A DNA stretch of 24,755 nt, from positions 1 to 24,755 of the forward strand of contig JBHHXT010000058.1 of NCBI GenBank assembly GCA_046757165.1, given 5' to 3'. The notes below the pieces were generated by a model that searched no databases, was not told the DNA's origin, and saw nothing but the letters and a program-made list of their open reading frames with translations. This DNA is from a bacterium (GTDB lineage Bacteria; Zhuqueibacterota; Zhuqueibacteria; Oceanimicrobiales; Oceanimicrobiaceae). The position numbers were made by a program, and so were the translations under genes. Positions 137 to 19,697 of this stretch are shown here, in pieces; the stretch's first letter is position 1, and every line of letters starts with the position of its first letter.

Positions 137-1132
137 TCAATATGAAACATAAATAGCAGACTTGTCAATTCTCGAATTCAGCGGACCGACCGTTTTTAAT
201 TTGAAAGCGGCCAAATTGCTACCTGCCAGAATGCATTCTGGTGGTTGATGACCGTCCAACCAGGCGGTGAGAAAGCCAGCCCAAAAGGCATCTCCCGCTC
301 CGGTCGCATCGGATACCAAAACCTCTCTACCTGGAACATGCTCTTGATTAGCGCCGTGGTTCCAGGAGACCAAGCTGCCTTTTGCACCCTTGGTTAAACA
401 AACCAATTCGGCTCCCCAATTGTGGAAGCGCGAAATGGCTTCTTCAGCGGTTAATGTGCTGTCATCAAATAGCCTGGAAATATCGTCCAGACTGATTTTC
501 GTTAAAGCGCCATGACTACAATATTTGGCAACAATTCTCTGCGCTTCCTCTCGATTATCCCAAATTGATGGAGCGTAATTGACATCGATACTCAGGTGAC
601 ATCCAAGCTCTGACGCTCGACCGGCACCACCGAGGATACTGCTTTGGGCTGGCTCACGACTCAAGGCAAAACACGTCGTATGATAAATGCTGCTACGCTG
701 GATTACGTTGCCGCTAATATGCTCCGGCTTTATCATGACATCAGCAACTCTGTAGGCAATGAAATCCGGCGTTCCCTGTGTTTTCGTGAGAATGACCATA
801 GAGGTTGGGGCAATCGGGTCAGTTATAATATAATCTGTAATGACACCGGCTTCCTTCAACTGCTTCTTCAGGAAGTGACCCAGACCTTCGTTGCCTACAC
901 AAGCGATTAAAGCAGTTCGATTTCCCAGGCAGGCTAAATTAGCTGCAAGATTGGCCGGACTTCCCCCCCGATAGCGATGAAAATCGCGCGCTTTCTCTAA
1001 GTTGTCACACGCCTCATGACTTATGAAGTCGCAAAGGAATTCACCGACGGCTAACACATCGATTTCTCTACTTCGGCGAGATTTTGACGGTGCGATAAAG
1101 GTCAGTTTTAGGGAAGATGTTTTTTCAGCCAT
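137..1132 (-). CDS. PfkB-family carbohydrate kinase, probably fructokinase
   Basis: VGEFLCDF start, GGSPANLAANLACLG (PfkB signature 1), DVNYAPSIW, DATGAGDAFWAG (PfkB signature 2). As called, it overlaps the upstream GT4 gene by 25 nt. Confidence 0.9.
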   Translation of the reverse strand: MAEKTSSLKLTFIAPSKSRRSREIDVLAVGEFLCDFISHEACDNLEKARDFHRYRGGSPANLAANLACLGNRTALIACVGNEGLGHFLKKQLKEAGVITDYIITDPIAPTSMVILTKTQGTPDFIAYRVADVMIKPEHISGNVIQRSSIYHTTCFALSREPAQSSILGGAGRASELGCHLSIDVNYAPSIWDNREEAQRIVAKYCSHGALTKISLDDISRLFDDSTLTAEEAISRFHNWGAELVCLTKGAKGSLVSWNHGANQEHVPGREVLVSDATGAGDAFWAGFLTAWLDGHQPPECILAGSNLAAFKLKTVGPLNSRIDKSAIYVSY

Positions 1133-2595
1133 TCTTCATCTATATCATTATTTTCAGGATTCTTAAAATAATTTGGAATAGGATATGTTCGTTGACTCGC
1201 AACCTCTCCCGCTAAGATTGCGTGAATTTCAACAAGATAACTTTCTGCGGCTTTTTCCCAGGTGTGTTTTTCATTGACTCGATGTATTCCGGCTTGCTGC
1301 ATCAGTCGCCACTCCCGTAAGTCGAGGGTCAATCTCGTTAGGCCGTTACCAATGTCAGCCGGATCATTTGGATCAACAAGGATTCCATACTCGGTCTTTT
1401 CATCTTGCAAACTTTCGCTCGGTCCACCGTTCTTAGTCACTACTGCTGGCAATCCACAGGCCATCGCCTCTAATGGCGCCAATCCAAAGGGCTCGTAAAC
1501 CGAAGTAAGCGCAAAAATACCTCGCCGATTTTTTGCAAAATAACGATATGCGGCAGCTAACTCCTTTTGGTTTTTCAGATCAAAGGCTGTTACGCAAGGC
1601 CAAAGATTGGCTTTTTCCAGGATTTCAACAATTTGGTTAAGGATAGAAAGCTTCTCACCAGAGTAAAACGAGTTTCTTTGGCGTAATGGATCCGGATGGT
1701 CATTTACAACCAGGGCTAAATTCGCAGAATCCCGTAATCGTTGATTTACTTGCCAAGCACGTAACAGTGCCACATGATTCTTTTTTCGATCAAGGCGACT
1801 GGAACAAATCACCACGGGAAGATGGCATCGACTTTCCGGAATATCGCGTTTCAACATTGCTTCGACTTTTTCAGCGATTCGCTCCTCGAATTCATCTTTC
1901 TGGTCAATCCCGAATAATCGTAAGTTCACACCCGGTGGAATGACGGCAAACTTTTGGTCGTCTTGAGGATCGACCGCTCCCGCGTAAATCTGGTGCTTGT
2001 ATTGTTCAAATCGCTCCTGACGAGTGCTGGTGATGATGCGGCTGGCCCTGGCCATGCTTAAACGCTCAGCGGCGATGCGTTTATCGAAATGGAACCGTTG
2101 CAACAACTGTGAGAGGCTTTCTCTACTTTTTAGAAACTGGTCCATTTTTTGTGCGCCTAAGCTGTGTGCCGTGAAAGTAAAAAGGGTGCCTAAACGCTCT
2201 TGTAGCAAAGCAGCCGCAAGTCCGCCGTCACCATAATGGCTGGTAGCAGCGACAGGAAACTGACCTTCGTTTTGATAAAATCGAATAATATTCTCAACCC
2301 ACTCGCGTATCCAGGGCCACAATTCTTCTTTGGGTAATAAATGATCAGGGCCACATGGCAATCTAATAATTCTTATGTTATGATGCCCGGGATAATTATC
2401 AAATGTCGCTGCAAATTCTGGCCAATTTGGGTCGATAATTTGTCTGGTAAGAATATCTACTTTACAATTTAATTCGCCCAGTGCCAGGCTCAATTCTTTT
2501 ACATAAACGAGTTGACCGCCAAAATCCGGATGCTCGGTCCAGCCTCGATCAGTTGGATCGAAATTTCCTTGCGGATTTAAAAATGCGATTCGCAT
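1108..2595 (-). CDS. sps: Sucrose-phosphate synthase-like GT4 glycosyltransferase (GT-B domain only, no HAD phosphatase domain)
   Basis: AFLNPQGNFDP..WTEHPDFGGQLVYVKE, LPKEELWP, HYGDGG, HSLGAQK, SSRLDRKKNH, YEPFGLAPLEAMACGLP; motifs and length (495 aa) match the Halothermothrix orenii-type SPS as recalled. Confidence 0.88.
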   Translation of the reverse strand: MRIAFLNPQGNFDPTDRGWTEHPDFGGQLVYVKELSLALGELNCKVDILTRQIIDPNWPEFAATFDNYPGHHNIRIIRLPCGPDHLLPKEELWPWIREWVENIIRFYQNEGQFPVAATSHYGDGGLAAALLQERLGTLFTFTAHSLGAQKMDQFLKSRESLSQLLQRFHFDKRIAAERLSMARASRIITSTRQERFEQYKHQIYAGAVDPQDDQKFAVIPPGVNLRLFGIDQKDEFEERIAEKVEAMLKRDIPESRCHLPVVICSSRLDRKKNHVALLRAWQVNQRLRDSANLALVVNDHPDPLRQRNSFYSGEKLSILNQIVEILEKANLWPCVTAFDLKNQKELAAAYRYFAKNRRGIFALTSVYEPFGLAPLEAMACGLPAVVTKNGGPSESLQDEKTEYGILVDPNDPADIGNGLTRLTLDLREWRLMQQAGIHRVNEKHTWEKAAESYLVEIHAILAGEVASQRTYPIPNYFKNPENNDIDEEWLKKHLP

Positions 2596-2600
2596 ATTTT

Positions 2601-4184
2601 TTACCAGAACATTATTACCAGAATTGCTGTTAGAACTATCAACGCAACGGATAAGATACGGTAATTTTTGTACCAGACAACATCCTTTAACAGCCGTGAC
2701 TCAGCGTCATAAAATCGCTTCGCCCAGGTGAGTTCGTTGGTTTTTTCGTCAGGAGGCGGCGGAGTCATGAGGCTGACCATTACGATGACCGGAATCGCTA
2801 CCAGAAATAGGATCAGCGCAACGTAAAGAAAGTGCATATTCATAATTAACAGAATTTCATTGGCAATGAAAAGAAGCGCGCCGGATAAAAATCCCACCAC
2901 CAATGTAGCAAAAGCTCCCTGCGCATTTGCCCGTTTCCAGAAGATGCCAACCAGAAAAAGTGCGGCAACCGGAGGCACCGTATAGGAAAGTACTCTCTGC
3001 AAGTACTTAAAGAGCGACCCGAAATTCTCGATGAAAGGCGCCCATACCGCGGCTAGAATCATGAAAAAGGCGGTTGCGGCGCGGCCAACCCACATGAGTT
3101 TTTCACTACTCAAGTCCGGCCGCCTTTTATGCACAAAGTCCATCGTAACCAGCGTAGAGGCAGAATTTAGCGTGGAGTCAATTTGAGACATCAGGGCAGC
3201 AACAAATCCAGCCAAAGCAAGGCCTACGACACCTACCGGCAAGAGGTCAAAGAGTAGGGTCGGATAGACGAGGTCGGCTTTCGGCAACTCCGGGTAGAGC
3301 ACTCTTGCCATCGTGCCGGGAAGAACCATAATAAACAGTGGCGGCAGTTTCAGAAACCCTGCGAAAATTGCCCCCCAGCGGCCGTGGTTCTCGTCTTTGG
3401 CGCTTAAGACACGCTGCACCATAAACTGGTTCGTGCACCAAAAATAGAACCCCAACAAAGGAACACCGGTGAGTAAACCGAGCCACGGCACACCCGGATC
3501 ATCCAACGGACGGACGAGACTGAGCATCTCGGGAGGAGTGATGTCAGTTACGACGCCCCAGCTTCCGATCTTCACAAAAGCACAAATCGTAATAATAATC
3601 GAAGCGATCAAAAGTAAGATGGCTTGAATCATATCAGTATAAATCACGGCTGCCAGGCCGCCTGCGATGGTGTACAAACCCGCCAGCAGGGCCAGCACGC
3701 CAATCGTCTGCCATAAGGGGATTCCCGGAAATATCAATTTGATCAACAAACCACCGGCATATAGACTTCCGGCGGTATCGACGACAATGTTTAGAAAAAG
3801 CGTTAGCACCGAAAAATACGTGCGGGCGCGCCCATCGAATCGCTTTTCCAGAAATTGCGGCATGGTGTAAACTCGGGAGCGCAAGTAAAAAGGTAAAATA
3901 AAGATGGCAAAGAAAACCAGGATGACGCTGGCCATCCATTCATAATTGTAGACTGAAATACCTGTGCTGTACGCATCCCCGGCCAATCCAACCAGCGTAG
4001 TACTGGATATGTTGGAAGCAAACAAAGAGAAACCTATTAGTGGCCACGTCATAGAACGGGCCGCCAGAAAATAGTCTTCTGCCGTTTCGTGTTTTTTTGC
4101 AAATCGAAATCCTAAATAAACAACAAACGCCGCATACAATGCAACCAAAGTTAAATCAATGGGATGCAAACTGAATTCTGGCAT
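2601..4184 (-). CDS. Sodium:solute symporter (SSS/SGLT-like sugar transporter)
   Basis: EDYFLAARSMTWPLIGFSLFASNISS, YTIAGGLAAVIYTD, YFWCTNQFMVQRVLSAK, AALMSQIDSTLNSASTL; many hydrophobic helices. Confidence 0.95.
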   Translation of the reverse strand: MPEFSLHPIDLTLVALYAAFVVYLGFRFAKKHETAEDYFLAARSMTWPLIGFSLFASNISSTTLVGLAGDAYSTGISVYNYEWMASVILVFFAIFILPFYLRSRVYTMPQFLEKRFDGRARTYFSVLTLFLNIVVDTAGSLYAGGLLIKLIFPGIPLWQTIGVLALLAGLYTIAGGLAAVIYTDMIQAILLLIASIIITICAFVKIGSWGVVTDITPPEMLSLVRPLDDPGVPWLGLLTGVPLLGFYFWCTNQFMVQRVLSAKDENHGRWGAIFAGFLKLPPLFIMVLPGTMARVLYPELPKADLVYPTLLFDLLPVGVVGLALAGFVAALMSQIDSTLNSASTLVTMDFVHKRRPDLSSEKLMWVGRAATAFFMILAAVWAPFIENFGSLFKYLQRVLSYTVPPVAALFLVGIFWKRANAQGAFATLVVGFLSGALLFIANEILLIMNMHFLYVALILFLVAIPVIVMVSLMTPPPPDEKTNELTWAKRFYDAESRLLKDVVWYKNYRILSVALIVLTAILVIMFW

Positions 4185-4279: not shown

Positions 4280-6922
4280 CTAATTAAGGCTGTAACCCAC
4301 CGTAAGGGCTATAGAGCGACCCGCTATCGGCCTTACCCGCACAAAGTTAACCTGATTGTCTACGATGCTGCCTTCCTCAGATTCGGTAATTCCCAGTGTA
4401 TCCAGCAGGTTATTTCCACTAACCGATGCAGCCAATTTGCTCGTTATCTGATACCTTAGAAATCCATTGACAATCACATAGCCCGGCATAATGAGCTCGT
4501 TGCTGTCTTGCGCGTATGCCTTGGTCTGGCCGATGAGACTTAACCCGACTGAATGCTGACCTATAGAATATGTTGGGATAAGATTGAACATAACAGCAGG
4601 TTGCCGCCGCGGCGTATTGCCGTCATTCGCTCCGGATGTGATCTCAGCCTTCGTGAGGGTCATTCCACCACGTAGATCCAGTGCGCCGAGACTCAATGCG
4701 CCTTCTACTTCAACGCCGAATGCATCATAATCATTCTCAATGATCTTTTGGGTAGTCGCCTCAAATCCCCCTTCTTCGGTTGTGCTTGCCAGAAATCCCG
4801 TGACAAATAGACCACCCTTACTGAACAAGTGTTTGTACCCAAATTCCGCTTGACGGATTATATCTTTTGCATTCAGAGTCGTTCCACCTGTATAAGGCAA
4901 TCCGAGAAACAACAGGCGATCGGCTTTTGCTGAACCGCCCCGGCTGTAACGAACAAAAACTGCTTGATTTTCATTGAGCTGGTAGTTGCCGCCGACTGAA
5001 AAAGACGCATAGTCGTAGGTATAATCAACCGGCGTGGTATTGGCGTTATCTATAGCTGAAACACTTTCTTCGTTCGGTGAAATGACGCCATCGTTATTCA
5101 CATCGAAGGTTCTCTGTACGGGGCCGGCGAATTGTCCTGTAACACGTCCATTATCAATACGAACACTGGCGTCCACGTTCAATGCTTCGCTGACTTCTAG
5201 ATCTGCACTGAAGTAAGGCGCGGTGGTCAAATAATCTGTATCATAATTCCGCTGACAGCAATTGCCCCAGAAAGGCACGCCATATGCATAAAGTCCGTTT
5301 TGACTTAACTTTGTGCCATCGGCAGCAAAAACATCCACCAGCCTCGCATTCTCACCATCCACATCTGTCAGGTAAGAATTCCAGAGCCAGGACATGGAAA
5401 TGGATTGGTTCGACAAATAGAAACCGGCACCCAGATTTGCTTTTCCGAACTGCTTCGATACTTTGAAATCATTCACCAGGAAATTGAAATCGTTCAACTC
5501 GGTATCAAACAGGTGAATTCTGAGAGCGAGTCCATTCCCCGCATTTCCATTTCCAAAGGGAGTGCCATCTGCATATTGAAGGAATGCTCCCGGGCCCCCG
5601 ATGGATTCAGCCAATTCCTGAGCGGTGCCAATCTGGGCCGGAAAAGGCGCAACGAAGCGGCCAGAATTAAGTGCCAATCTCCCACGATTCTCAAGCCGCC
5701 AGCCGTTATCAAGGTCGCGTGCGAATTCAAGTCCAACTGCCGTGGAGAGAGCATGCATTCCGTCAGCGACATCACTACGCCGGAGCGCACCGTCAACTCC
5801 GAGACCCAGATTTTGCAGCAAAAACGGGGTGTGCATTGTGCCTGAAGTAGCGTCATATCCAGCAATAGAACCCCAGTTCGGGGAATCGTTTGTTCCCTCT
5901 ACTCTTAACGGCATGGGCATGTAGGCAGCGGCACGATCATTCAGGTACTTGAAGTAAATCCGGCCATATCCGCCATCAAATAGTCTGGTGAGGTTCATTT
6001 TCACCTGACCGCCGGAGTTTGCAGTGTAGCCGGTTGTTCTTGGTCCGTCTCCCTGTCGCACGAAACCACCGACGTGGAAGCTCATATCATGGCCTAATGG
6101 AGACCCATACTCAAAGTCAACGCGGGAGTGCTTATAATCCAGACCGGTGCTTGTGCTGACGTATCCACCTGCAGCTGCACCGGTTTTGCTGATAAAGTTG
6201 ATGATGCCGGCAGGTGAATTGCTTGCCAGAGTAGAAGCGGAACCACCACGGATGGCTTCAATGCGACCGACATTGTAGTCCGCTCTTAAGAAAATATCCA
6301 CTGTAGCAAAAGCAATATCGCCAAACTGAAAGATGGGTAGACCATCTTCCTGCAATTGCAGATATTTCGCCCCTCCTGCGGAGATGGGGACGCCTCTCAG
6401 GGTGATATTTGTATTTCCATCGCCACCGGAAGCTTCCGAACGAACGCCAGGTATGGTCCGAAAAATCTCCGCAGTTGTTCTGGGTGCAGACTTTTCAATC
6501 TCCCGGATATTCAATGTGGAAATGGATACACTGGATTCAATTTTTGAAGCCGGATTTACGACACCGGTGACCACGACTTCGCTCAGACCCAAAACATCTT
6601 CCTCGAGAACGAAATCTACTGTGGCCGTTGCATCGGCTGCAACCGTTACTTCTTTCTTAACCGTTTTATAACCGATAAATCGGGCAACCAGGGTGTATGT
6701 CCCTGGCGGCACAGCAGAAATGGTGTAATTACCCTCCAGATCAGAAGCAGCACCCATCAGAGTACCCTCGATAGATATATTTGCGCCAGCCAAAGCCATG
6801 CTCTCGTTGTCCTTTATGCTTCCCGCAATTTTTCCGGTTGCCTGGGAGAAAACTGTCGAAGTTGAGAAGAGGATGAGAATGGCAAAAGCGATTAATTGAA
6901 TTTTTGTTCTTTGAGATTTCAT
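4280..6922 (-). CDS. TonB-dependent receptor with N-terminal carboxypeptidase-regulatory-like domain; resembles sugar (sucrose-type) TBDRs
   Basis: Signal peptide; GKIAGSIKD..LAGANISIEGT..GAASDLEGNYTIS; EVVVTG; plug motifs IPGVRSEASGG, LQEDGLP, IEAIRGG, PAGIINFISK; C-terminal NNLLD..GRS beta strands; RBS AGGAGG. Confidence 0.92.
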   Translation of the reverse strand: MKSQRTKIQLIAFAILILFSTSTVFSQATGKIAGSIKDNESMALAGANISIEGTLMGAASDLEGNYTISAVPPGTYTLVARFIGYKTVKKEVTVAADATATVDFVLEEDVLGLSEVVVTGVVNPASKIESSVSISTLNIREIEKSAPRTTAEIFRTIPGVRSEASGGDGNTNITLRGVPISAGGAKYLQLQEDGLPIFQFGDIAFATVDIFLRADYNVGRIEAIRGGSASTLASNSPAGIINFISKTGAAAGGYVSTSTGLDYKHSRVDFEYGSPLGHDMSFHVGGFVRQGDGPRTTGYTANSGGQVKMNLTRLFDGGYGRIYFKYLNDRAAAYMPMPLRVEGTNDSPNWGSIAGYDATSGTMHTPFLLQNLGLGVDGALRRSDVADGMHALSTAVGLEFARDLDNGWRLENRGRLALNSGRFVAPFPAQIGTAQELAESIGGPGAFLQYADGTPFGNGNAGNGLALRIHLFDTELNDFNFLVNDFKVSKQFGKANLGAGFYLSNQSISMSWLWNSYLTDVDGENARLVDVFAADGTKLSQNGLYAYGVPFWGNCCQRNYDTDYLTTAPYFSADLEVSEALNVDASVRIDNGRVTGQFAGPVQRTFDVNNDGVISPNEESVSAIDNANTTPVDYTYDYASFSVGGNYQLNENQAVFVRYSRGGSAKADRLLFLGLPYTGGTTLNAKDIIRQAEFGYKHLFSKGGLFVTGFLASTTEEGGFEATTQKIIENDYDAFGVEVEGALSLGALDLRGGMTLTKAEITSGANDGNTPRRQPAVMFNLIPTYSIGQHSVGLSLIGQTKAYAQDSNELIMPGYVIVNGFLRYQITSKLAASVSGNNLLDTLGITESEEGSIVDNQVNFVRVRPIAGRSIALTVGYSLN

Positions 6923-7257
6923 CGTTTCCTCCTGCTAATTGTTAGTTCGATGTGCTCGTCAATAATAAGACTAAGAGCGTATATGAAAACTCGATCAGAC
7001 GTGTCATTCTGTAAGAATCTTTGTAATTTCAAGCACGGACTACCCCCCCAGTCCGGATGTAAAGTCAAAACAGATGCTTCCCGCATGACTGTTATGAGGC
7101 TTTTCAGACACCCTTTAAAGTAAGGGTCAGCTTTCCAACAGTCTTATTTTTCTACAAAAATTGATTGCACCTTAGCCTCCGTCTTATTAAATTAAAAAAG
7201 CCTGATTCAGATTGGGATAGCGCTACCTATCCCGGCTGATTCGTTTAAACATGTTTC

Positions 7258-7281
7258 TTACATGCTTAAACCTCCTTTCAT
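7258..7281 (-). other. Mini-ORF MKGGLSM* with embedded AAAGGAGGT, followed by a hairpin and T-run
   Basis: Minus strand ATGAAAGGAGGTTTAAGCATGTAA; downstream GGGATAG-N6-CTATCCC stem and CTTTTTT. Confidence 0.35.
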
Positions 7282-7387
7282 GATTTAGTTAGTGGTTTAA
7301 ACTACTAATTATATTATTTTGTGAAGGATTTAAGGCTTGGGCCGATCGACCAAGCGCCAATTTGTGTCCGATTGGCCCATTTTGTTT

Positions 7388-7414
7388 CTACTTCTTTATG
7401 TCACCTCCTTTCAT
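7388..7414 (-). other. Mini-ORF MKGGDIKK* with embedded AAAGGAGGTGA, followed by a hairpin
   Basis: Minus strand ATGAAAGGAGGTGACATAAAGAAGTAG; downstream GGGCCAATCG...CGATCGGCCC stem. Confidence 0.35.
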
Positions 7415-7521
7415 AACTTTGAATTCTCTCGGCTAAAATTGAGTTATTGTTTACTGATGATTTAGATGAATTGTTGGTTTTCGTTTTTTATCAATTCCCT
7501 CCAAATAAGAATTACTTTTCC

Positions 7522-10521
7522 CTAAAAAGTATAGGATGTACTTGCGACTATCGAGCGGCCGTAAATCGGCTTCGCATAAAATAGGTCAGCCGTTGAACCG
7601 ACAATGCCATCCAGCCGCGGATCGCCTTCAACGATTCCGAGGGTATTGGTCAAATTATAGCCGTTGAATTGCAAACTTATTTTCTGACTCAGTTCAATAG
7701 TAAAGGCTGCGTTATATTGCGTGTAGGCAGGCAGCTTTTTTCTATTAGCCGGATCCGCAAACCGGTCACTGTAATGCTGGATGGTTAAGGTGAAATTCGC
7801 CGGCCCAAGCCGATAGGTTGGACTTACTGTAAAATACAGTTTTGGGATTCTCTTTATCTGGTTGCCATCTAGATTGATTTTCTCAAGTACTTTTGGTGTA
7901 TCAGGGTTATGGTCATGGTCAACCGGTTGACTAAACATCCAGTTTTTATAACGGATATCCTGCACCGTTGTAATCACATTGAGGGTGAAGGGGCCATGGC
8001 TTGCGATAATTTCCGTTTCCAGCCCATAGCCACGGCTCTTGGCTGTTTCGTTGAGGGTTATAAACTTGTCCGGGTCATTCGGGTCTTGAATAAATTCAGC
8101 AAAGGGGATACGGTCGAAGGTGCTGTAGAAGAGCGTTCCGAAGAAAGCCAGGTTGGGAACGGAGTATTTGAAACCTGTCTCATATTGATAGATATTCTCT
8201 ACATCCACTTTAGAGTTTAACCCATTTGGTCTGCTTTCATCGAGCCCGCCGGTAAAATTCATATCATCCGGGGCTCTAAATCCTTTACTTGTTCGACCAA
8301 AAAGCACCGCATTTTCGCCGAGTTTGAAATTGAGACCAAAGGACCAGGCGAACACATCATAGTTAAATTTGACAGAAGTGGTCTCACCCGTGCCGTATTG
8401 GACGTTGTCGTCCGCGGTAGTCATTTCATCACCCAGGTCAAATTCCGCCGTTTTTTCTATCCAGCCGTTCATCGTGCCGGTTTCAAAGCGCAGACCTAAA
8501 TCAAGCGTCAACTTGTGAGTAGGCGTAAACTTGTCGTTCAGAAAAAAGGCATGTACCTCCGTATCAAAGCGATAATGATTGTAGAAAGAACCGTAATCCG
8601 ACCAGCCATTTTTGGTATAGGATACGCCGGTACGATTGTTCATTAAATTCAAGGCTCTGGTTTTATCTGAGATATCGACTAATAGGTTCTGCCATTGCCA
8701 CAGGCCTTCTACGTTGCTGGTTGAGAAATAATACCCGCCATTCACATGATGCAAACTAAGTTCCTTAGATATGGAAAAAACATCGGAGAAGTCCCGCAGA
8801 GGTGTGGTAACATGCCACCATCCGTATTCGCCAACCAGACCATTCGTCGTGAGATCAGCTTGTTCTCCTGTGCGTTCACCTCGCGCATACGTATAGGTGT
8901 AATCCGCATCGGGTCCAAATACATTTCTGGCAAAAGCATCGTATTGTAACAGGGAACCAACAGGGAAAATACCAATAAATTTTGAATCTATTATCGATTT
9001 CTTAAAGGTATTTTTTAGTGTCCAGTTTTTGCCAATGCCCCAAAAAGTTTCCCCACCAAATGAAAAGACCTGCGGATTTATGCCATCGCCGAGATCAGCT
9101 ACCAGGCTTTTCCCGTTAGGTTTTGGCACATCAGCGAACCTGATATCCGAACTCGCCAGAGTTCCGAAGAGAGGGTCAAACCCTGCGATTGCTTCATAAT
9201 TGTCAGCATCCTGCAAGGGGATGTTCACATAAGAGATGTTACTATCATGGAGATACTTCATATTAACACGGAGATACCCCCTGTTCATATAATAAGTCAT
9301 GTTCGCTTTAATCTGCCCGCCCTTATCTGCTAAGAACCCCGGTGAACGAATGCCGTTAGACACTCGATAAAAGCCACCGACATGGTAGCGTAATTTCTCA
9401 CTGAGGGGTCCACCAAAATCGAGATCAGTCCGGTGATATTTGTACGTAACCCCCAAACTTTGTTTGATTTTGCCTTGAGACGTTTCGCTGCCAGTTTTGC
9501 TAATAATATTGACGATTCCCCCAGGCGCATTGCTGGCAAAAATAGAGCTGGGACCCCCTCTTACGGCTTCCACACGGGCGATGGTTTGATCAACACGCAG
9601 CCAGAGGTCGGCATTGCCGAAGGCCAGTTCAGGTTGTTCGAAAACCGGCATGCCATCTTCCTGCAAGACCACATAGCGGTAATTGCCATCCGCCGGGATA
9701 CCGCGCGCCCAGAGATTGTTATTGTTTTCACCACCAACGCTTTCAACATAAAAACCAGGTATGGATTTCAGCAGATCTGCGACATTTTGCGGAGCTTGCC
9801 CTTCGATTTTTCGTGGGTTCAGCGTTGTCACGGCCACACTGGATTCAAGCTTGGTTTCAGGATTAAAAGTGCCGGTCACGACCAGCGCTTCCATATCCAA
9901 TACATCTTCATAAAGCTTGAAATTATGCGTTGATTCTGTACCTGCAGCAACGGCCACCTCTCTTTTCGCCTTTTTGTACCCAATAAAACTGGCAACCAAA
10001 TCATAGCTGCCGGGGGGCACATTTTTTATCTGGTATTTTCCCGAAGCATCCGTTGCCGCACCCAACTCGAAACCGAAATTTGAAGAGCTATCCTCAAGAT
10101 AAACGTTTACGCCGGTGAGTGCTCCGTTCCGGTCACTGACATAGCCCTCGACTGCGCCATATACGATGTCAGAAGAATTTGCGTCGCGTTCAACCAGGGC
10201 GATGGTCCTGTGTCCGATTTTTTTGAAGGTGATTGGATATTCAGCAAGCAAATCTTCCAGCACTTCATAAATATTTTGGTCTGCTGAATATGTAAGCTTG
10301 GGCACCGTACGACCTTGAACCAACTTGTCATTATACATGACATGGACACGAAAGACCTCTTTTAGCTGGGACAGCGCCTCGCCAAGATCTATCCTCTGAG
10401 GCGCCAGGTCTACGTCGCGCCGAGACTTGGAAGCCAACTCTTGTGAGAAACCGTTGATTGTGAATAAGGCAACAGCAACGGTTATCAAAATACGTATTAT
10501 ACTTTGCGTGCCCATATTCAA
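7522..10521 (-). CDS. TonB-dependent transducer (STN-like signalling domain, carboxypeptidase-regulatory-like domain, plug and barrel)
   Basis: After the signal peptide, LGEALSQLKEVFRVHVMYND..IYEVLEDLLAEYPITFKKIG is an STN-like domain; ALVVTG; plug motifs shared with 4280-6922; ends SYTF; directly downstream of fecR. True start may be ATG at 10515. Confidence 0.92.
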   Translation of the reverse strand: MNMGTQSIIRILITVAVALFTINGFSQELASKSRRDVDLAPQRIDLGEALSQLKEVFRVHVMYNDKLVQGRTVPKLTYSADQNIYEVLEDLLAEYPITFKKIGHRTIALVERDANSSDIVYGAVEGYVSDRNGALTGVNVYLEDSSSNFGFELGAATDASGKYQIKNVPPGSYDLVASFIGYKKAKREVAVAAGTESTHNFKLYEDVLDMEALVVTGTFNPETKLESSVAVTTLNPRKIEGQAPQNVADLLKSIPGFYVESVGGENNNNLWARGIPADGNYRYVVLQEDGMPVFEQPELAFGNADLWLRVDQTIARVEAVRGGPSSIFASNAPGGIVNIISKTGSETSQGKIKQSLGVTYKYHRTDLDFGGPLSEKLRYHVGGFYRVSNGIRSPGFLADKGGQIKANMTYYMNRGYLRVNMKYLHDSNISYVNIPLQDADNYEAIAGFDPLFGTLASSDIRFADVPKPNGKSLVADLGDGINPQVFSFGGETFWGIGKNWTLKNTFKKSIIDSKFIGIFPVGSLLQYDAFARNVFGPDADYTYTYARGERTGEQADLTTNGLVGEYGWWHVTTPLRDFSDVFSISKELSLHHVNGGYYFSTSNVEGLWQWQNLLVDISDKTRALNLMNNRTGVSYTKNGWSDYGSFYNHYRFDTEVHAFFLNDKFTPTHKLTLDLGLRFETGTMNGWIEKTAEFDLGDEMTTADDNVQYGTGETTSVKFNYDVFAWSFGLNFKLGENAVLFGRTSKGFRAPDDMNFTGGLDESRPNGLNSKVDVENIYQYETGFKYSVPNLAFFGTLFYSTFDRIPFAEFIQDPNDPDKFITLNETAKSRGYGLETEIIASHGPFTLNVITTVQDIRYKNWMFSQPVDHDHNPDTPKVLEKINLDGNQIKRIPKLYFTVSPTYRLGPANFTLTIQHYSDRFADPANRKKLPAYTQYNAAFTIELSQKISLQFNGYNLTNTLGIVEGDPRLDGIVGSTADLFYAKPIYGRSIVASTSYTF

Positions 10522-11637: not shown

Positions 11638-11872
11638 TTAAATATTTCCGTTGAATTTCCGTTGATGATTAATAGTTTTCTTACTTAAGGTTTTCAGTTA
11701 TATAGAGAGTAGCAGGGCGTCAATTTTAATGGTCAAGAATGAAAATTCTTAAGATTTTGTTGGAATCGGTCTTCATGGCTATAAAACGGAATAGTTTTAA
11801 TATTGCAGAGAAACTTGTTGCCAAAGAGGGTTTAAGAGTGATCGATAGATTGTTGGTGGGTGAGAAAAATGA

Positions 11873-12454
11873 TTATCCTTTGCCCAAGAATGTTTTCTTG
11901 AGTCTTTGGAAAGCCTCAGAAACGTAATTGTAAGCAACCTGCGGTGAGACTTGCATGACTTCAGCGATTTCCTTATAAGAAAGCTCATCAAACGTTCTCA
12001 AATATAAGGCTTCTCGCATTCGAGCTGGAATTTCACTCATAGCATTTTGCAAAAGCTCTTTTTTCTCCTCTCGATGTTCTTGCAGCACGACTAAATCTTC
12101 AGGAGAAAACGCATACAGATCTTCACCCGTGGCTAAGCTTTGGTGTCTGTTCTTGAGTTTGCGGTTTTTTTCAAGCATTGACAAATAATGACGCCGGACG
12201 GAACTCAATAAGTACGCCTTTACAGATGAGACGCTCGCTATGTCTTTCCGTTTTTTCCAAATATAGATAAAAACTTCTTGAATACAGTCTTTTGCCAACT
12301 CTTCAGATCGTGCCAATTTTAAACAATAATCATATAAAAAGTGGTGATGGCGAGTAAACAGCGTTTCCAGGGCTTTTTCATCGTCGAGACGCAATCGCTC
12401 CCATAGTTGTCGATCTTCGGCAGCGAGTTTATTTGATGTCTCTATAAGCGCCAT
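11873..12454 (-). CDS. ECF RNA polymerase sigma-70 factor (FecR-coupled type)
   Basis: ALETLFTRH, AKDCIQEVFIYIW (region 2), VKAYLLSSVRR, IPARMREALYLR..LSYKEIAEVM (region 4); upstream of fecR. Confidence 0.95.
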   Translation of the reverse strand: MALIETSNKLAAEDRQLWERLRLDDEKALETLFTRHHHFLYDYCLKLARSEELAKDCIQEVFIYIWKKRKDIASVSSVKAYLLSSVRRHYLSMLEKNRKLKNRHQSLATGEDLYAFSPEDLVVLQEHREEKKELLQNAMSEIPARMREALYLRTFDELSYKEIAEVMQVSPQVAYNYVSEAFQRLKKTFLGKG

Positions 12455-12495: not shown

Positions 12496-12903
12496 CCTGA
12501 ATAATTCATAAAAAAAACTGTTTTCTTTCACAAGGTTTTGTTTTATATTTAGTTAGATCAAAACCAAACACAAAACCGAGTTGGAGAAAACAGCTATGAG
12601 TAAATATACGAAACAATTGATGCTTTTTAAAGAGATTTCCGGTAAAAAAGTTGAAATTGATTTTGACGGCGGTGACGTCAGTTCGGATGCAGGCGTACTT
12701 TTTCTCAAAGAAACCGAATCGGAAATCGGAATTATTAACAAAGTTGCCGAAGCCATCATTGATAAACGACATCAGAGTTATGTCAAACATGAGACGGTTC
12801 ATCTTTTAACGCAACGTGTCTTTCAAATCGCCTCTGGTTACGAAGATGGTAATGATTGTAATGAACTTCGCCATGACCCGATTTTCAAGATGTCTTGTGA
12901 TAG
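12496..12903 (+). mobile_element. IS1380-family element, 5' remnant (left end plus about the first 100 transposase codons from ATG 12596)
   Basis: Left end CCTGAATAATTCATA; FDGGDVSSDAGVLFL and QRVFQIASGYEDGNDCNELRHDPIFK are IS1380 transposase N-terminal motifs; similarity stops at the IS66 end. Confidence 0.85.
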
Positions 12904-12956
12904 GTATCCATCCCACCAACCCCACCTTGCACCTGTTTTTAGAAATCTAGAAATCG

Positions 12957-13373
12957 CTAACATGGGCTATCGGTGGGAACCGCTCTTTTCCATTTTTGCG
13001 GTAGAAGCTCGTGAAGTTTCTTGTGCGGATGCGTGGCGATGCGGGCGATGACGTCGCGCAGATACTCGAAGGGCTCGTAATCGAGTTCTTCGGTCACCTC
13101 TTCACCGATTTTTTTCATGCCGGTGGTGTCGCCCTCCGGCTCGCTGGCCATGAACTCCAGATGGCCTTGCGCGCCATTTGGCTCGGGCACGAAGCGTTCG
13201 CTTTTGGCGCCGCAGATGAGTTTTTTGAGACGGGCGAGTTTCTGAGTCAGATAGGCGACCTGGGCTTCCAGTTGCGCCTTTTCGCTCGCGACAGCCTGGA
13301 ATTGGGAGCGAAGAAGCTGATGCTGTTCTAGAAGGGCGTCGTAAGTTAGTGGTGTCTCCCCAGGAAGTTCCAT
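12957..13373 (-). pseudogene. tnpC: IS66 TnpC with in-frame internal deletions (DDE core absent)
   Basis: Leucine-zipper N-terminus (..LKKLICGAKSERF), KKIGEEVTEELDYEP, then directly the C-terminal EPFEYLRDVIARI..LHELLPQKW; only 138 aa. Confidence 0.88.
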
Positions 13374-13400
13374 GGGGATAAGATATGTAATTTCAGCGAT

Positions 13401-13766
13401 CTATGCTACTACTTTTTCGAGAAATGTCATATTTTTTCGGCGCTTGACACTGGCAAGCTCGATGCCTTCGATGAGCAGCATCAAGTCGGCATACGGCAAA
13501 AGCAGTGAGTCAGTTTGGGCTGAGTGTGGCGGCAGTTGGAAAGAGCCACTCTCCAGGCGTTTGTAGAAAATCCAGAAGCCGCCGCGTTGCCACACCAGCA
13601 GTTTGATGCGGTCGCGCCGGCGGTTCAAGAGGACATAGACATCGCCTGAAAGCGGGTCGCGCGCCATGGCGCCGCTGACGAGGCCGCACAGGCCATCGAA
13701 GCTCTTGCGCATGTCGGTCGGCGGCAAATAGAGAAAGAAGCGCTGCGGCGTGATCAGGGGCAGCAT
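13401..13766 (-). CDS. tnpB: IS66 accessory protein TnpB (Orf2)
   Basis: PTDMRKSFDGL, DPLSGDVYVLLNRRRDRIKLLVW, KRLESGSF. Confidence 0.95.
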   Translation of the reverse strand: MLPLITPQRFFLYLPPTDMRKSFDGLCGLVSGAMARDPLSGDVYVLLNRRRDRIKLLVWQRGGFWIFYKRLESGSFQLPPHSAQTDSLLLPYADLMLLIEGIELASVKRRKNMTFLEKVVA

Positions 13767-13768
13767 GG

Positions 13769-14128
13769 CTAAAGCCGCTTGCCGGCAGCAACGGGTTGCA
13801 GAGTGATGAGGACTTTGAGCAGCTCCGGGTCAACGGCTGTGCCCAGGCTGACCACCACGCCATTGGGGTAGTGCACCACCACACCCTGGTCGCCAGCAGC
13901 AGCGGCAGACTGGACGGCGGGCTTGAGCTCGACAAAAAGGTGGCGCTTTTCCGGTTGCTGTTCGTCAGAACGATGATGCTTGCGGTAGCGCGAAAGCCAG
14001 TATTGAAAAGTCGAGAGCGCCAGCCCTTGCGACTGGCAGAAAGCTTTCTGGCTCTTGCCACTGGCCGCGTAGGCCTCGATGAGCGCAAACATCTCCTGCG
14101 CCCGGATGCTCAAACGACGGTCGGACAT
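13769..14128 (-). CDS. tnpA: IS66 accessory protein TnpA (Orf1, HTH)
   Basis: SGKSQKAFCQSQGLALSTFQYW, FVEL, VHYPNGVVV; RBS GAGGAG; overlapping arrangement with tnpB. Confidence 0.9.
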   Translation of the reverse strand: MSDRRLSIRAQEMFALIEAYAASGKSQKAFCQSQGLALSTFQYWLSRYRKHHRSDEQQPEKRHLFVELKPAVQSAAAAGDQGVVVHYPNGVVVSLGTAVDPELLKVLITLQPVAAGKRL

Positions 14129-14180
14129 CTTGCTTCTCCTCTCTCAAATCGCTGATAGTTGGGGTGGGCCGGATGGATAC

Positions 14181-14540
14181 TTCAATGGTGAGAAGGTCAC
14201 CTACCGCTACCAGGACAACAAGAAACGGCAGCACACGCCAACTCTCGATGCTGAAACGTTCATCAGCCGCTTTCTGCAGCATGTGCTGCCAAAGGGCTTT
14301 GTGAAAGTGCGCTATTACGGCTTCTTCAGTCCGCGTAAAAGAGAGACGCTCGAGCGTGTCAAAGAACTCTTTGGCTTATGCGATTCAGAAGAGAAATCCT
14401 GCTCCGCGACCGGCTGTGGCGGCGACGCTGAAGGGCGGGTGATGCGCTGTCCCAAGTGCGGCGAACCCATGGTGCTTGTCGGTGACATCAAACCGAAAAA
14501 GCATCTTCTGGGCTGGCCCTTGCAGTGGAGACCGCCTTGA
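14181..14540 (+). pseudogene. IS91-family (Y2 rolling-circle) transposase, 3' fragment
   Basis: VTYRYQD..LDAETFISRFLQHVLPKGFVKVRYYGF and C-terminal CPKCG..M zinc knuckle; 5' part replaced at the IS66 end. Confidence 0.88.
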
Positions 14541-18976: not shown

Positions 18977-19411
18977 TTGGAAAAGACGCCGCTTGTGGTT
19001 CTGGATACAAACGTATTGGTGGCTGGCCTATGTAGGCGGGCAAATTCGCCGAGCTTCAAGATTCTCCAGAATATTCAAAAAGAGATTATTCCGTTGGCCT
19101 TGACGCATAAGCTTTATTTGGAGTACGAATCTGTAGTAACCAGACAGAATATCCTGAGGCTCATAGATGCGAGCGTCGAAGAGGTACGGCTTGTTCTGGA
19201 CGCGCTGGTAGCCATTGCACACAAATCTGACGTGCACTATCTGTGGCGGCCAAATCTGCCTGATGAAACAGATAATTTTGTATTAGAGACAGCGGTGGCC
19301 ACCGGGGCGATTGTTGTTACAAAAAACATCAGGGACTTTCAACGTGGCGAGTTGAAGTTTCCCGAACTCATCATTGTGAAGCCTAAACAATTTTGCGATT
19401 CATACTCATAA
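18977..19411 (+). CDS. PIN-domain protein, putative TA toxin
   Basis: VVLDTNVLVAGL, LYLEYESV, WRPNLPDETDNFVLETAV, IVVTKNIRDF; TTG start. Confidence 0.9.
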   Translation: MEKTPLVVLDTNVLVAGLCRRANSPSFKILQNIQKEIIPLALTHKLYLEYESVVTRQNILRLIDASVEEVRLVLDALVAIAHKSDVHYLWRPNLPDETDNFVLETAVATGAIVVTKNIRDFQRGELKFPELIIVKPKQFCDSYS

Positions 19412-19427
19412 AATGAGGAGAGCAGAG

Positions 19428-19697
19428 ATGAGCGCCATATCCATCCGATTACCCGATGACCTCAAAGATAAGGCAATGCGCCTCGCCAAGAAGAAAAACA
19501 TCTCTTTCAACAGTTTGGTCAACCATTGGCTGCAGGCTGCGGTGATGCAAGACGACACCCTCGAGTGGATGAAAAGACAGTTGAGCGGGAAGCAACCTGA
19601 ACTTGTGATCGCCAAATTTGGTGAATTTCTGGAAAAAACAAGACCGGGCGACGAACCAACATCGGACGAGATCGAAAGGGCGATCTCCGGTCAGTAG
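19428..19697 (+). CDS. Ribbon-helix-helix (HicB/CopG-like) putative antitoxin
   Basis: MSAISIRLPDDLKDKAMRLAKKKNISFNSLV; GAGGAG RBS before ATG 19428; directly after the PIN gene. Confidence 0.85.
   Translation: MSAISIRLPDDLKDKAMRLAKKKNISFNSLVNHWLQAAVMQDDTLEWMKRQLSGKQPELVIAKFGEFLEKTRPGDEPTSDEIERAISGQ

Follow-up and report, generated by a model that had tools for sequence, protein, structure and literature searches.

The spacer between two TonB-dependent receptor (TBDR) genes carries two extended Shine-Dalgarno (SD) sequences. Statistical comparison of leaders shows both to be local instances of an element that runs through a whole class of probably KSB1/Calditrichota-like genomes: GAAAGGAGGTGAT, an extended SD that usually has no start codon behind it and lies mostly 75-170 nt upstream of genes for exported proteins. 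The reading that fits the comparative data best, to which we give a probability of roughly one half, is that a 30S subunit docked persistently at such a site would shield the downstream mRNA from 5'-end-dependent attack by RNase E/G. The first-pass annotation had offered four options for the spacer; an RNA-stabilising, ribosome-dependent leader appears to fit best on sequence evidence, and an attenuator peptide, a CsrA sponge and an undescribed structured RNA fared badly.

The spacer and its transcript setting

The spacer lies in the window (the whole stretch of DNA analysed, 24,755 nt) among the following features, all on the minus strand.

137-1132 (-): PfkB kinase
1108-2595 (-): GT4 glycosyltransferase, sucrose-phosphate-synthase-like (score below the equivalog cut-off)
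2601-4184 (-): sodium:solute symporter, behind TBDR2
4280-6922 (-): TBDR2, TonB-dependent receptor of 880 aa with a signal peptide
6923-7521 (-): probable internal leader between TBDR1 and TBDR2, AU-rich, 599 nt (A 0.36, T 0.26, G 0.21, C 0.17)
7522-10521 (-): TBDR1, TonB-dependent receptor of about 999 aa
10537-11637 (-): fecR
11703-11731 (-): ECF-type promoter-like motif, before fecR and behind the ECF sigma gene (matrix score 16.5)
11873-12454 (-): ECF sigma gene

The nearest named relatives of TBDR2 (76-84% identity) are assigned to candidate division KSB1, Calditrichaceae or Calditrichaeota, with a single one under Bacteroidetes, so the lineage is probably KSB1/Calditrichota-like. The promoter-like motif, CATTACATT-N11-14-CTCT, is common to the sigma-fecR spacers of relatives. 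When a matrix built from nine instances in the relatives' loci was applied to the window, its top match fell at 11731, before fecR, with a score of 16.5 compared with 6.2 for the best match in the 599-nt spacer, where the scan detected no promoter site; a sigma-70 scan gave three sites against 2.1 expected. Given that the ECF motif stands before fecR and none was found in the spacer, the spacer is most likely an internal untranslated leader of one long ECF-sigma-driven transcript, fecR-TBDR1-spacer-TBDR2-symporter-GT4-kinase. The sugar genes behind TBDR2 (137-4184, minus strand), to which other sugar enzymes are added in relatives, suggest a sucrose-type uptake locus. Directly upstream of the sigma gene, positions 12500-14540 hold nested insertion-sequence debris (fragments of IS1380 and IS91, and IS66 tnpA/tnpB accompanied by a third, short frame), and a PIN-domain gene followed by a 94-aa gene at 18977-19697 (plus strand) resembles a toxin-antitoxin pair in toxin-first order.

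Within the spacer we located the following features, where the z-scores of the four stems refer to boundaries chosen by hand.

7498-7502 (-): GGAGG of ordinary strength directly after the TBDR1 stop (-10.4 kcal/mol), with TTG 3 nt behind it (frame MIKNENQQFI*, 7494-7462)
7401-7412 (-): orphan extended SD 1, GAAAGGAGGTGA, a 12-nt perfect complement of the 16S tail (-20.1 kcal/mol), 486 nt before the TBDR2 start
7388-7414 (-): frame MKGGDIKK*, its ATG without an SD of its own and its MKGG spelt by SD 1
7338-7379 (-): hairpin behind SD 1 (z -2.8; no homologue elsewhere)
7270-7279 (-): extended SD 2, GAAAGGAGGT, a 10-nt perfect complement of the 16S tail (-15.6 kcal/mol)
7258-7281 (-): frame MKGGLSM*, its ATG without an SD of its own and its MKGG spelt by SD 2
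7258-7263 (-): ATG-TAA start-stop, 7 nt behind SD 2, at canonical spacing
7194-7242 (-): GGGATAG/CTATCCC hairpin with a bulged outer stem and T6, imperfectly terminator-like (z -2.5)
7176-7180 (-): GGAGG of ordinary strength (-9.5 kcal/mol), with GTG at 5 nt (frame MQSIFVEK*, 7170-7144)
7088-7143 (-): long interrupted stem (z -2.5)
7035-7055 (-): CGGACT-G7-AGTCCG hairpin (z -1.2, within chance)
7002-7021 (-): dispersed palindromic repeat, one half only, with blastn matches in loci L159, L160 and L130
6928-6933 (-): real SD of TBDR2

All the letters to which the first-pass annotation had pointed were found at their minus-strand places in the window, among them the five mini-ORFs, the four stems, AGAAACA at both stops (7389-7383 and 7258-7252), and the 12-mer ATGAAAGGAGGT, which occurs twice, at 7414 and 7281, in a 17-nt repeat of 88% identity with a spacing of 133. 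The arrangement of these letters into a regular SD-ORF-hairpin module was not borne out: the first SD is only 3 nt from its TTG, the T-run hairpin was left uncalled by a terminator scan, and the MLEITKILTE* frame overlaps the half repeat at 7002-7021. Words related to that repeat, which we take to be REP-like, occur 31-111 times in the own genome, with fuller copies both there and in the relatives' leaders.

The SD sequences stand out against chance. The sequence AAAGGAGGT(GA) is complementary to the 3' tail of 16S rRNA, which was taken from three relatives whose 16S gene ends in GATCACCTCCTTTCT, the 16S fragment of the genome itself having no 3' end. With the last 25 nt of the spacer left out, GGAGG was counted four times (at intervals of 94-133 nt) when 0.57 copies were expected, a number reached by 2 of 3000 dinucleotide shuffles; AAAGGAGGT was counted twice against 0.005 expected, which none of 3000 shuffles reached. 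The same count on the antisense strand gave none. Pairing of 723 real GGAGG SDs with the 16S tail had a median of -11.4 and a 1st percentile of -17.7 kcal/mol, compared with the -20.1 of SD 1 and the -15.6 of SD 2. No start codon lies 4-11 nt behind the core of SD 1. SD 2 is a variant of this start-less form, since a start-stop follows it, as the first-pass annotation had correctly seen for the SD inside the MKGGLSM frame. Start-stops were found in 4 of 12 strong-SD mini-ORFs against a background of 5%; three of them precede TBDR genes, and all four are in the genome studied here.

The spacer as a whole has a more stable predicted fold than any of 20 shuffles (z -3.4). The proposal that it is an undescribed structured RNA nevertheless lost ground: the Rfam search suggested as a check gave no match at gathering score for the window or the spacer (five chance-level matches lay far below the cut-off), blastn of the spacer against 178 loci and the own genome returned only chance or repeat matches of 15-30 nt and no homologue, and no excess of structure was seen at class level (below).

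A start-less extended Shine-Dalgarno site across the class

We scanned leaders for orphan sites of at least 9 nt within 300 nt of a start, using our own gene caller and our own signal-peptide heuristic. In the own genome, such sites were present in 15 of 570 exported-gene leaders (and so missing from most, 555/570), compared with 7 of 1655 other leaders and 1 of 570 on the antisense strand. Among relatives, sampled as 60 stretches of up to 20 kb centred on TBDR matches, the counts were 13/175 for exported genes, 0/316 for other leaders and 0/175 for antisense; kin are not independent, so the class p-values overstate this contrast. After length and AT matching, the exported and other leaders gave 22/481 versus 5/636 and 18/349 versus 5/717. 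Other words behaved similarly, AGGAGGTG occurring in co-oriented spacers 23 times in sense and 3 times in antisense, and AAGGAGG in 11 of 33 TBDR leaders compared with 48 of 2417 others. A test seeded with GGAGG alone set a distinct class apart: among upstream sites of exported genes the core continued with TGA in 19/60, compared with 9/530 for real SDs, 3/69 for sites in other leaders and 11/319 on the antisense strand. The class consensus spans only tail-complement positions -4 to +8, its inner positions being partly fixed by site selection, and the match ends where the 16S tail itself does.

The 11-mer AAGGAGGTGAT was detected in 20 of 21 genomes of the family and 81 of 81 of the class, far above the reversed control. 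The 96 sites inspected in 82 loci, 40 of these loci being hand-picked in favour of tandem sites, were sorted automatically into 51 orphans, 38 'CDS' sites, 6 real SDs and one 16S site, the 'CDS' class being inflated by shadow frames, with several orphans mis-called as coding. A class set of 63 sites takes in 35 of these 96, which were kept by a distance and signal-peptide rule, with L214, L235 and L242 dropped by hand. An ATG at SD spacing stands behind 3 of the 63 compared with 12% in the background. Distance to the start is also constrained: 23 of 32 leader-scan sites lie at 70-170 nt (34% expected), as do 13 of 18 in long leaders, and the nearest is at least 75 nt away. By this measure, the spacer is exceptional, its two sites standing 486 and 353 nt before the TBDR2 start. 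The real SDs of genes that have the element are stronger than those of the remaining exported genes (median -11.6 against -8.0 kcal/mol), and the starts of these genes are no less accessible.

Conservation in related loci, on which the first-pass annotation had staked its reading, holds for the 16S-complement motif, not for the peptides, the hairpins or the spacer sequence. All four FadL-family orthologues keep GGAGGTGAT although their flanks are unrelated. Of seven TBDR leaders compared, either syntenic or the closest, four have an upstream strong SD (L039, L040, L045 and L155) and three do not (L041, L042 and L154). Some of the strong SDs in syntenic leaders are followed by frames of 1-8 codons, none of them MKGG. 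Tandem pairs 51-76 nt apart recur at L222-L226 and in contig C186 of the own genome, where start-stops behind strong SDs also precede two other TBDR genes (C189 and C449). Structure between the upstream site and the start was indistinguishable from that of controls (z -0.59 versus -0.49, p 0.27), and CCTCC, which could form a self-pairing switch, is absent from the spacer (0/1) and present in 2 of 63 class leaders. With neither a conserved structure nor an anti-SD in the class, the pairing partner is most simply the 16S tail. In single genomes, a start-less extended SD precedes what we take, from the N-terminal sequence, to be a dnaA-like gene (L196) and a ribosomal protein S1-like gene (L255). 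Outside the phylum, AAGGAGGTGAT was looked at in five genomes, and the numbers are too small to draw a boundary: judged by eye, two of the eight sites in the genome behind L043 were intergenic and start-less, and none of the 13 in the remaining four genomes.

A docked 30S subunit as a putative stabiliser, and its alternatives

The RNase J C-terminal domain PF17770 was detected in none of 61 genomes of the lineage, compared with 7 of 14 controls. In the own genome, which is 99.98% complete, RNase J (TIGR00649) scored below its cut-off and no beta-CASP domain (PF10996) was found; RNase E/G (a 510-aa frame), Rho and csrA are encoded. The same genome has two Rho-like genes, one of them below cut-off, and two RNase Y genes above cut-off (G000:C13:11842-13080, C222:847-1929, C6:34930-36462 and C52:21540-23087).

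In the portions of the literature available to us, one of the closest systems is STAB-SD of Bacillus thuringiensis cry3A (Agaisse and Lereclus 1996 and Mathy 2007, as summarised in PMC4113751). It is a strong SD from which no protein is started, some 125 nt upstream of the true start, and in Bacillus it acts by blocking RNase J1 (PMC4113751; PMC7509114). The element described here shares with it, as so described, a strong complement of the 16S 3' end that starts no protein ahead of an abundant product. Unlike STAB-SD, it extends mainly 3' (GGAGGTGAT), has tandem and start-stop forms, and marks exported-protein genes of a diderm lineage in which none of the 61 genomes searched yielded RNase J. 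With no RNase J detected, the mechanism proven for STAB-SD is not an option here; judged by gene content, the element is not a STAB-SD as defined, and it would work like STAB-SD, but against another nuclease, or like an upstream SD (uSD) of E. coli. We know of no start-less SD stabiliser established other than with RNase J.

A candidate for the other nuclease is RNase E/G. Scanning by RNase E and G starts from 5' monophosphates, and sites downstream of a bound ribosome are protected, the more so the stronger and more persistent the SD interaction (Richards and Belasco 2023, PMC9943677; accessible text). That obstacle, a ribosome bound in the 5' UTR, is likened here to the role proposed for the element; in the parts of that report at hand it was made with engineered uORFs in E. 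coli reporters, whereas here there are natural start-less candidate sites and a 510-aa RNase E/G frame. We propose that the working parts of the spacer are putative ribosome-docking sites rather than peptides, one start-less and one with a start-stop. A 30S subunit would pair over 12 or 10 bases, find no frame to translate and stay put; once endonucleolytic cuts had been made in the AU-rich leader, it would block 5'-monophosphate-dependent scanning by RNase E/G, so that the receptor mRNA downstream might outlive the upstream part and yield much protein, perhaps with help from the hairpins. A very long SD duplex without a frame has the form expected of a persistent obstacle, and the lack of sites closer than 75 nt would leave room for an initiating ribosome at the real start. 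Strong real SDs with ordinary start accessibility are as expected for abundant envelope proteins, less so for standby rescue. Because the two spacer sites lie 486 and 353 nt from the TBDR2 start, with an imperfect terminator-like hairpin behind them, they could instead belong to the 3' end of TBDR1 or to a lost gene.

We advance tentatively, as something that may hold but that we would not yet bet on, the wider proposal that RNase J-less bacteria evolved GAAAGGAGGTGAT as a dedicated start-less 'super Shine-Dalgarno', placed no nearer to the start than about 75 nt, a 30S roadblock to RNase E/G and long-life tag for mRNAs of outer-membrane and secreted proteins, lineage-wide and probably reinvented in several phyla. 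A literature search, with subscription papers and preprint supplements outside its scope (which may bear on novelty), found no paper joining KSB1 and Shine-Dalgarno and nothing on a start-less extended SD in the lineage. The element has a clear grammar in RNase J-less genomes, made up of the 3'-extended match, the minimum distance, exported-protein targets, and tandem and start-stop forms; short and portable, it could be used to tune mRNA output.

A docked 30S subunit might instead be handed to the real start, as at an upstream loading or standby site, giving more translation per message with stabilisation secondary; we consider this somewhat unlikely. Its precedent is focA of E. coli, where 30S subunits can bind, with no need of initiator tRNA, to a strong and conserved start-less SD some 213 nt upstream, and where mutating this SD reduces expression about 10-fold (Jagodnik et al. 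2025, bioRxiv 10.1101/2025.04.04.647229, in the part available to us). The resemblance to the E. coli uSDs (focA, skp), as far as that source goes, lies in a start-less SD in the far 5' UTR of an RNase J-free host (E. coli also lacked RNase J in our control list); the E. coli sites are needed for full expression, and the fixed distance from the start seen here would fit coupling to initiation. Against this, the source gives focA and skp weak GUG-type starts, whereas genes with the element have the stronger real SDs and similar accessibility noted above; a 12-13 bp duplex should release slowly, and the spacer sites lie 353-486 nt from the start, behind three stems. The E. coli sites differ in other ways too: their strong class is 5-7 nt long compared with 9-13 nt here, the enrichment reported for them is for heat-response and translation genes rather than exported proteins, and that part of the text reports no fixed window comparable to the 75-170 nt found here. 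The roadblock and enhancer readings need not exclude each other, and the lineage provides a sharp test of whether a parked 30S blocks RNase E/G or feeds initiation.

We regard as improbable the idea that the spacer is a relic, in which SD 1 would be an upstream site of the class type, SD 2 and its ATG the real start of a deleted gene, and the rest debris. SD 1 is 145 nt before the ATG at 7263, inside the class range, relatives have fecR and sigma genes between two receptor genes, and the spacer holds a repeat remnant; but blastx of the spacer for a decayed fecR or sigma gene found none (best E 2.6), start-stops behind strong SDs stand before two other TBDR genes of the genome as well (C189 and C449), and tandem sites are common. 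Very improbable, in our judgement, is an anti-polarity role, in which ribosomes tiled over a long untranslated stretch would prevent Rho termination ahead of TBDR2, as the presence of Rho and of four spaced GGAGG sites might suggest, because the spacer is not C-rich (C 0.17, G 0.21) and the class site takes its position from the start codon rather than from the length of the leader.

A leader-peptide attenuator acting through MKGG or other mini-ORFs, to which we give hardly any credence, could draw on mini-ORFs with adjacent stems, one of them with a T-run, and on the five copies of ATGAAAGGAGGT in the own genome, all in exported-gene leaders. However, the MKGG frames were not confirmed as translated units, the 15 nt before their ATGs pairing with the 16S tail at only -4.1 and +2.1 kcal/mol; the five copies have unrelated continuations, and their frames have nothing in common beyond MKGG; ATGAAA precedes only 2 of 63 comparable class sites, both in the own genome; the scarcity of CCTCC also speaks against it; and no peptide or sequence recurs in the syntenic leaders as a conserved translated leader peptide would. 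The MKGG peptides are, from the letters, a by-product, an ATG followed by SD letters automatically reading MKGG, and annotators should be warned that start-less SD sites give such false micro-peptides. The ATG and AGAAACA common to SD 1 and SD 2 are probably best read as a local duplication of a unit of about 35 nt.

AGGA motifs overlap SDs in known CsrA targets and csrA is encoded in the genome, but a CsrA sponge or CsrA-controlled leader is extremely unlikely, since the supposedly GGA-rich spacer has 11 GGA against 11.0 expected (1744 of 3000 shuffles reach 11), these GGAs are not in hairpin loops of the predicted folds, and conservation reaches TGAT exactly as the 16S tail requires.

A separate pseudoknotted RNA outside the window

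The AAGGAGGTGAT 11-mer also led us beyond the window to an unannotated RNA that stands alone and is about 235 nt long (L291:1432-1665, which is G000:C98, about 4495-4725, plus strand; also L284-L293, L185 and L248), with no Rfam match. Its predicted parts are a sigma-70-like promoter, a covarying hairpin with two-sided changes in 9 of 12 pairs, a long stem, an intrinsic terminator and a pseudoknot of 5 bp, which is 100% paired and shows one compensatory change; an invariant 16S-tail complement, AAGGAGGTGATCC, is sequestered in a stem. Counted with a model of the first 111 positions built from 11 sequences, it is present in single copy in 34 of 121 phylum genomes and in all 14 searched of the family, often upstream of a ferritin gene. 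It is possibly a ribosome-binding RNA, and it is distinct from a 6S-like locus that lies elsewhere.
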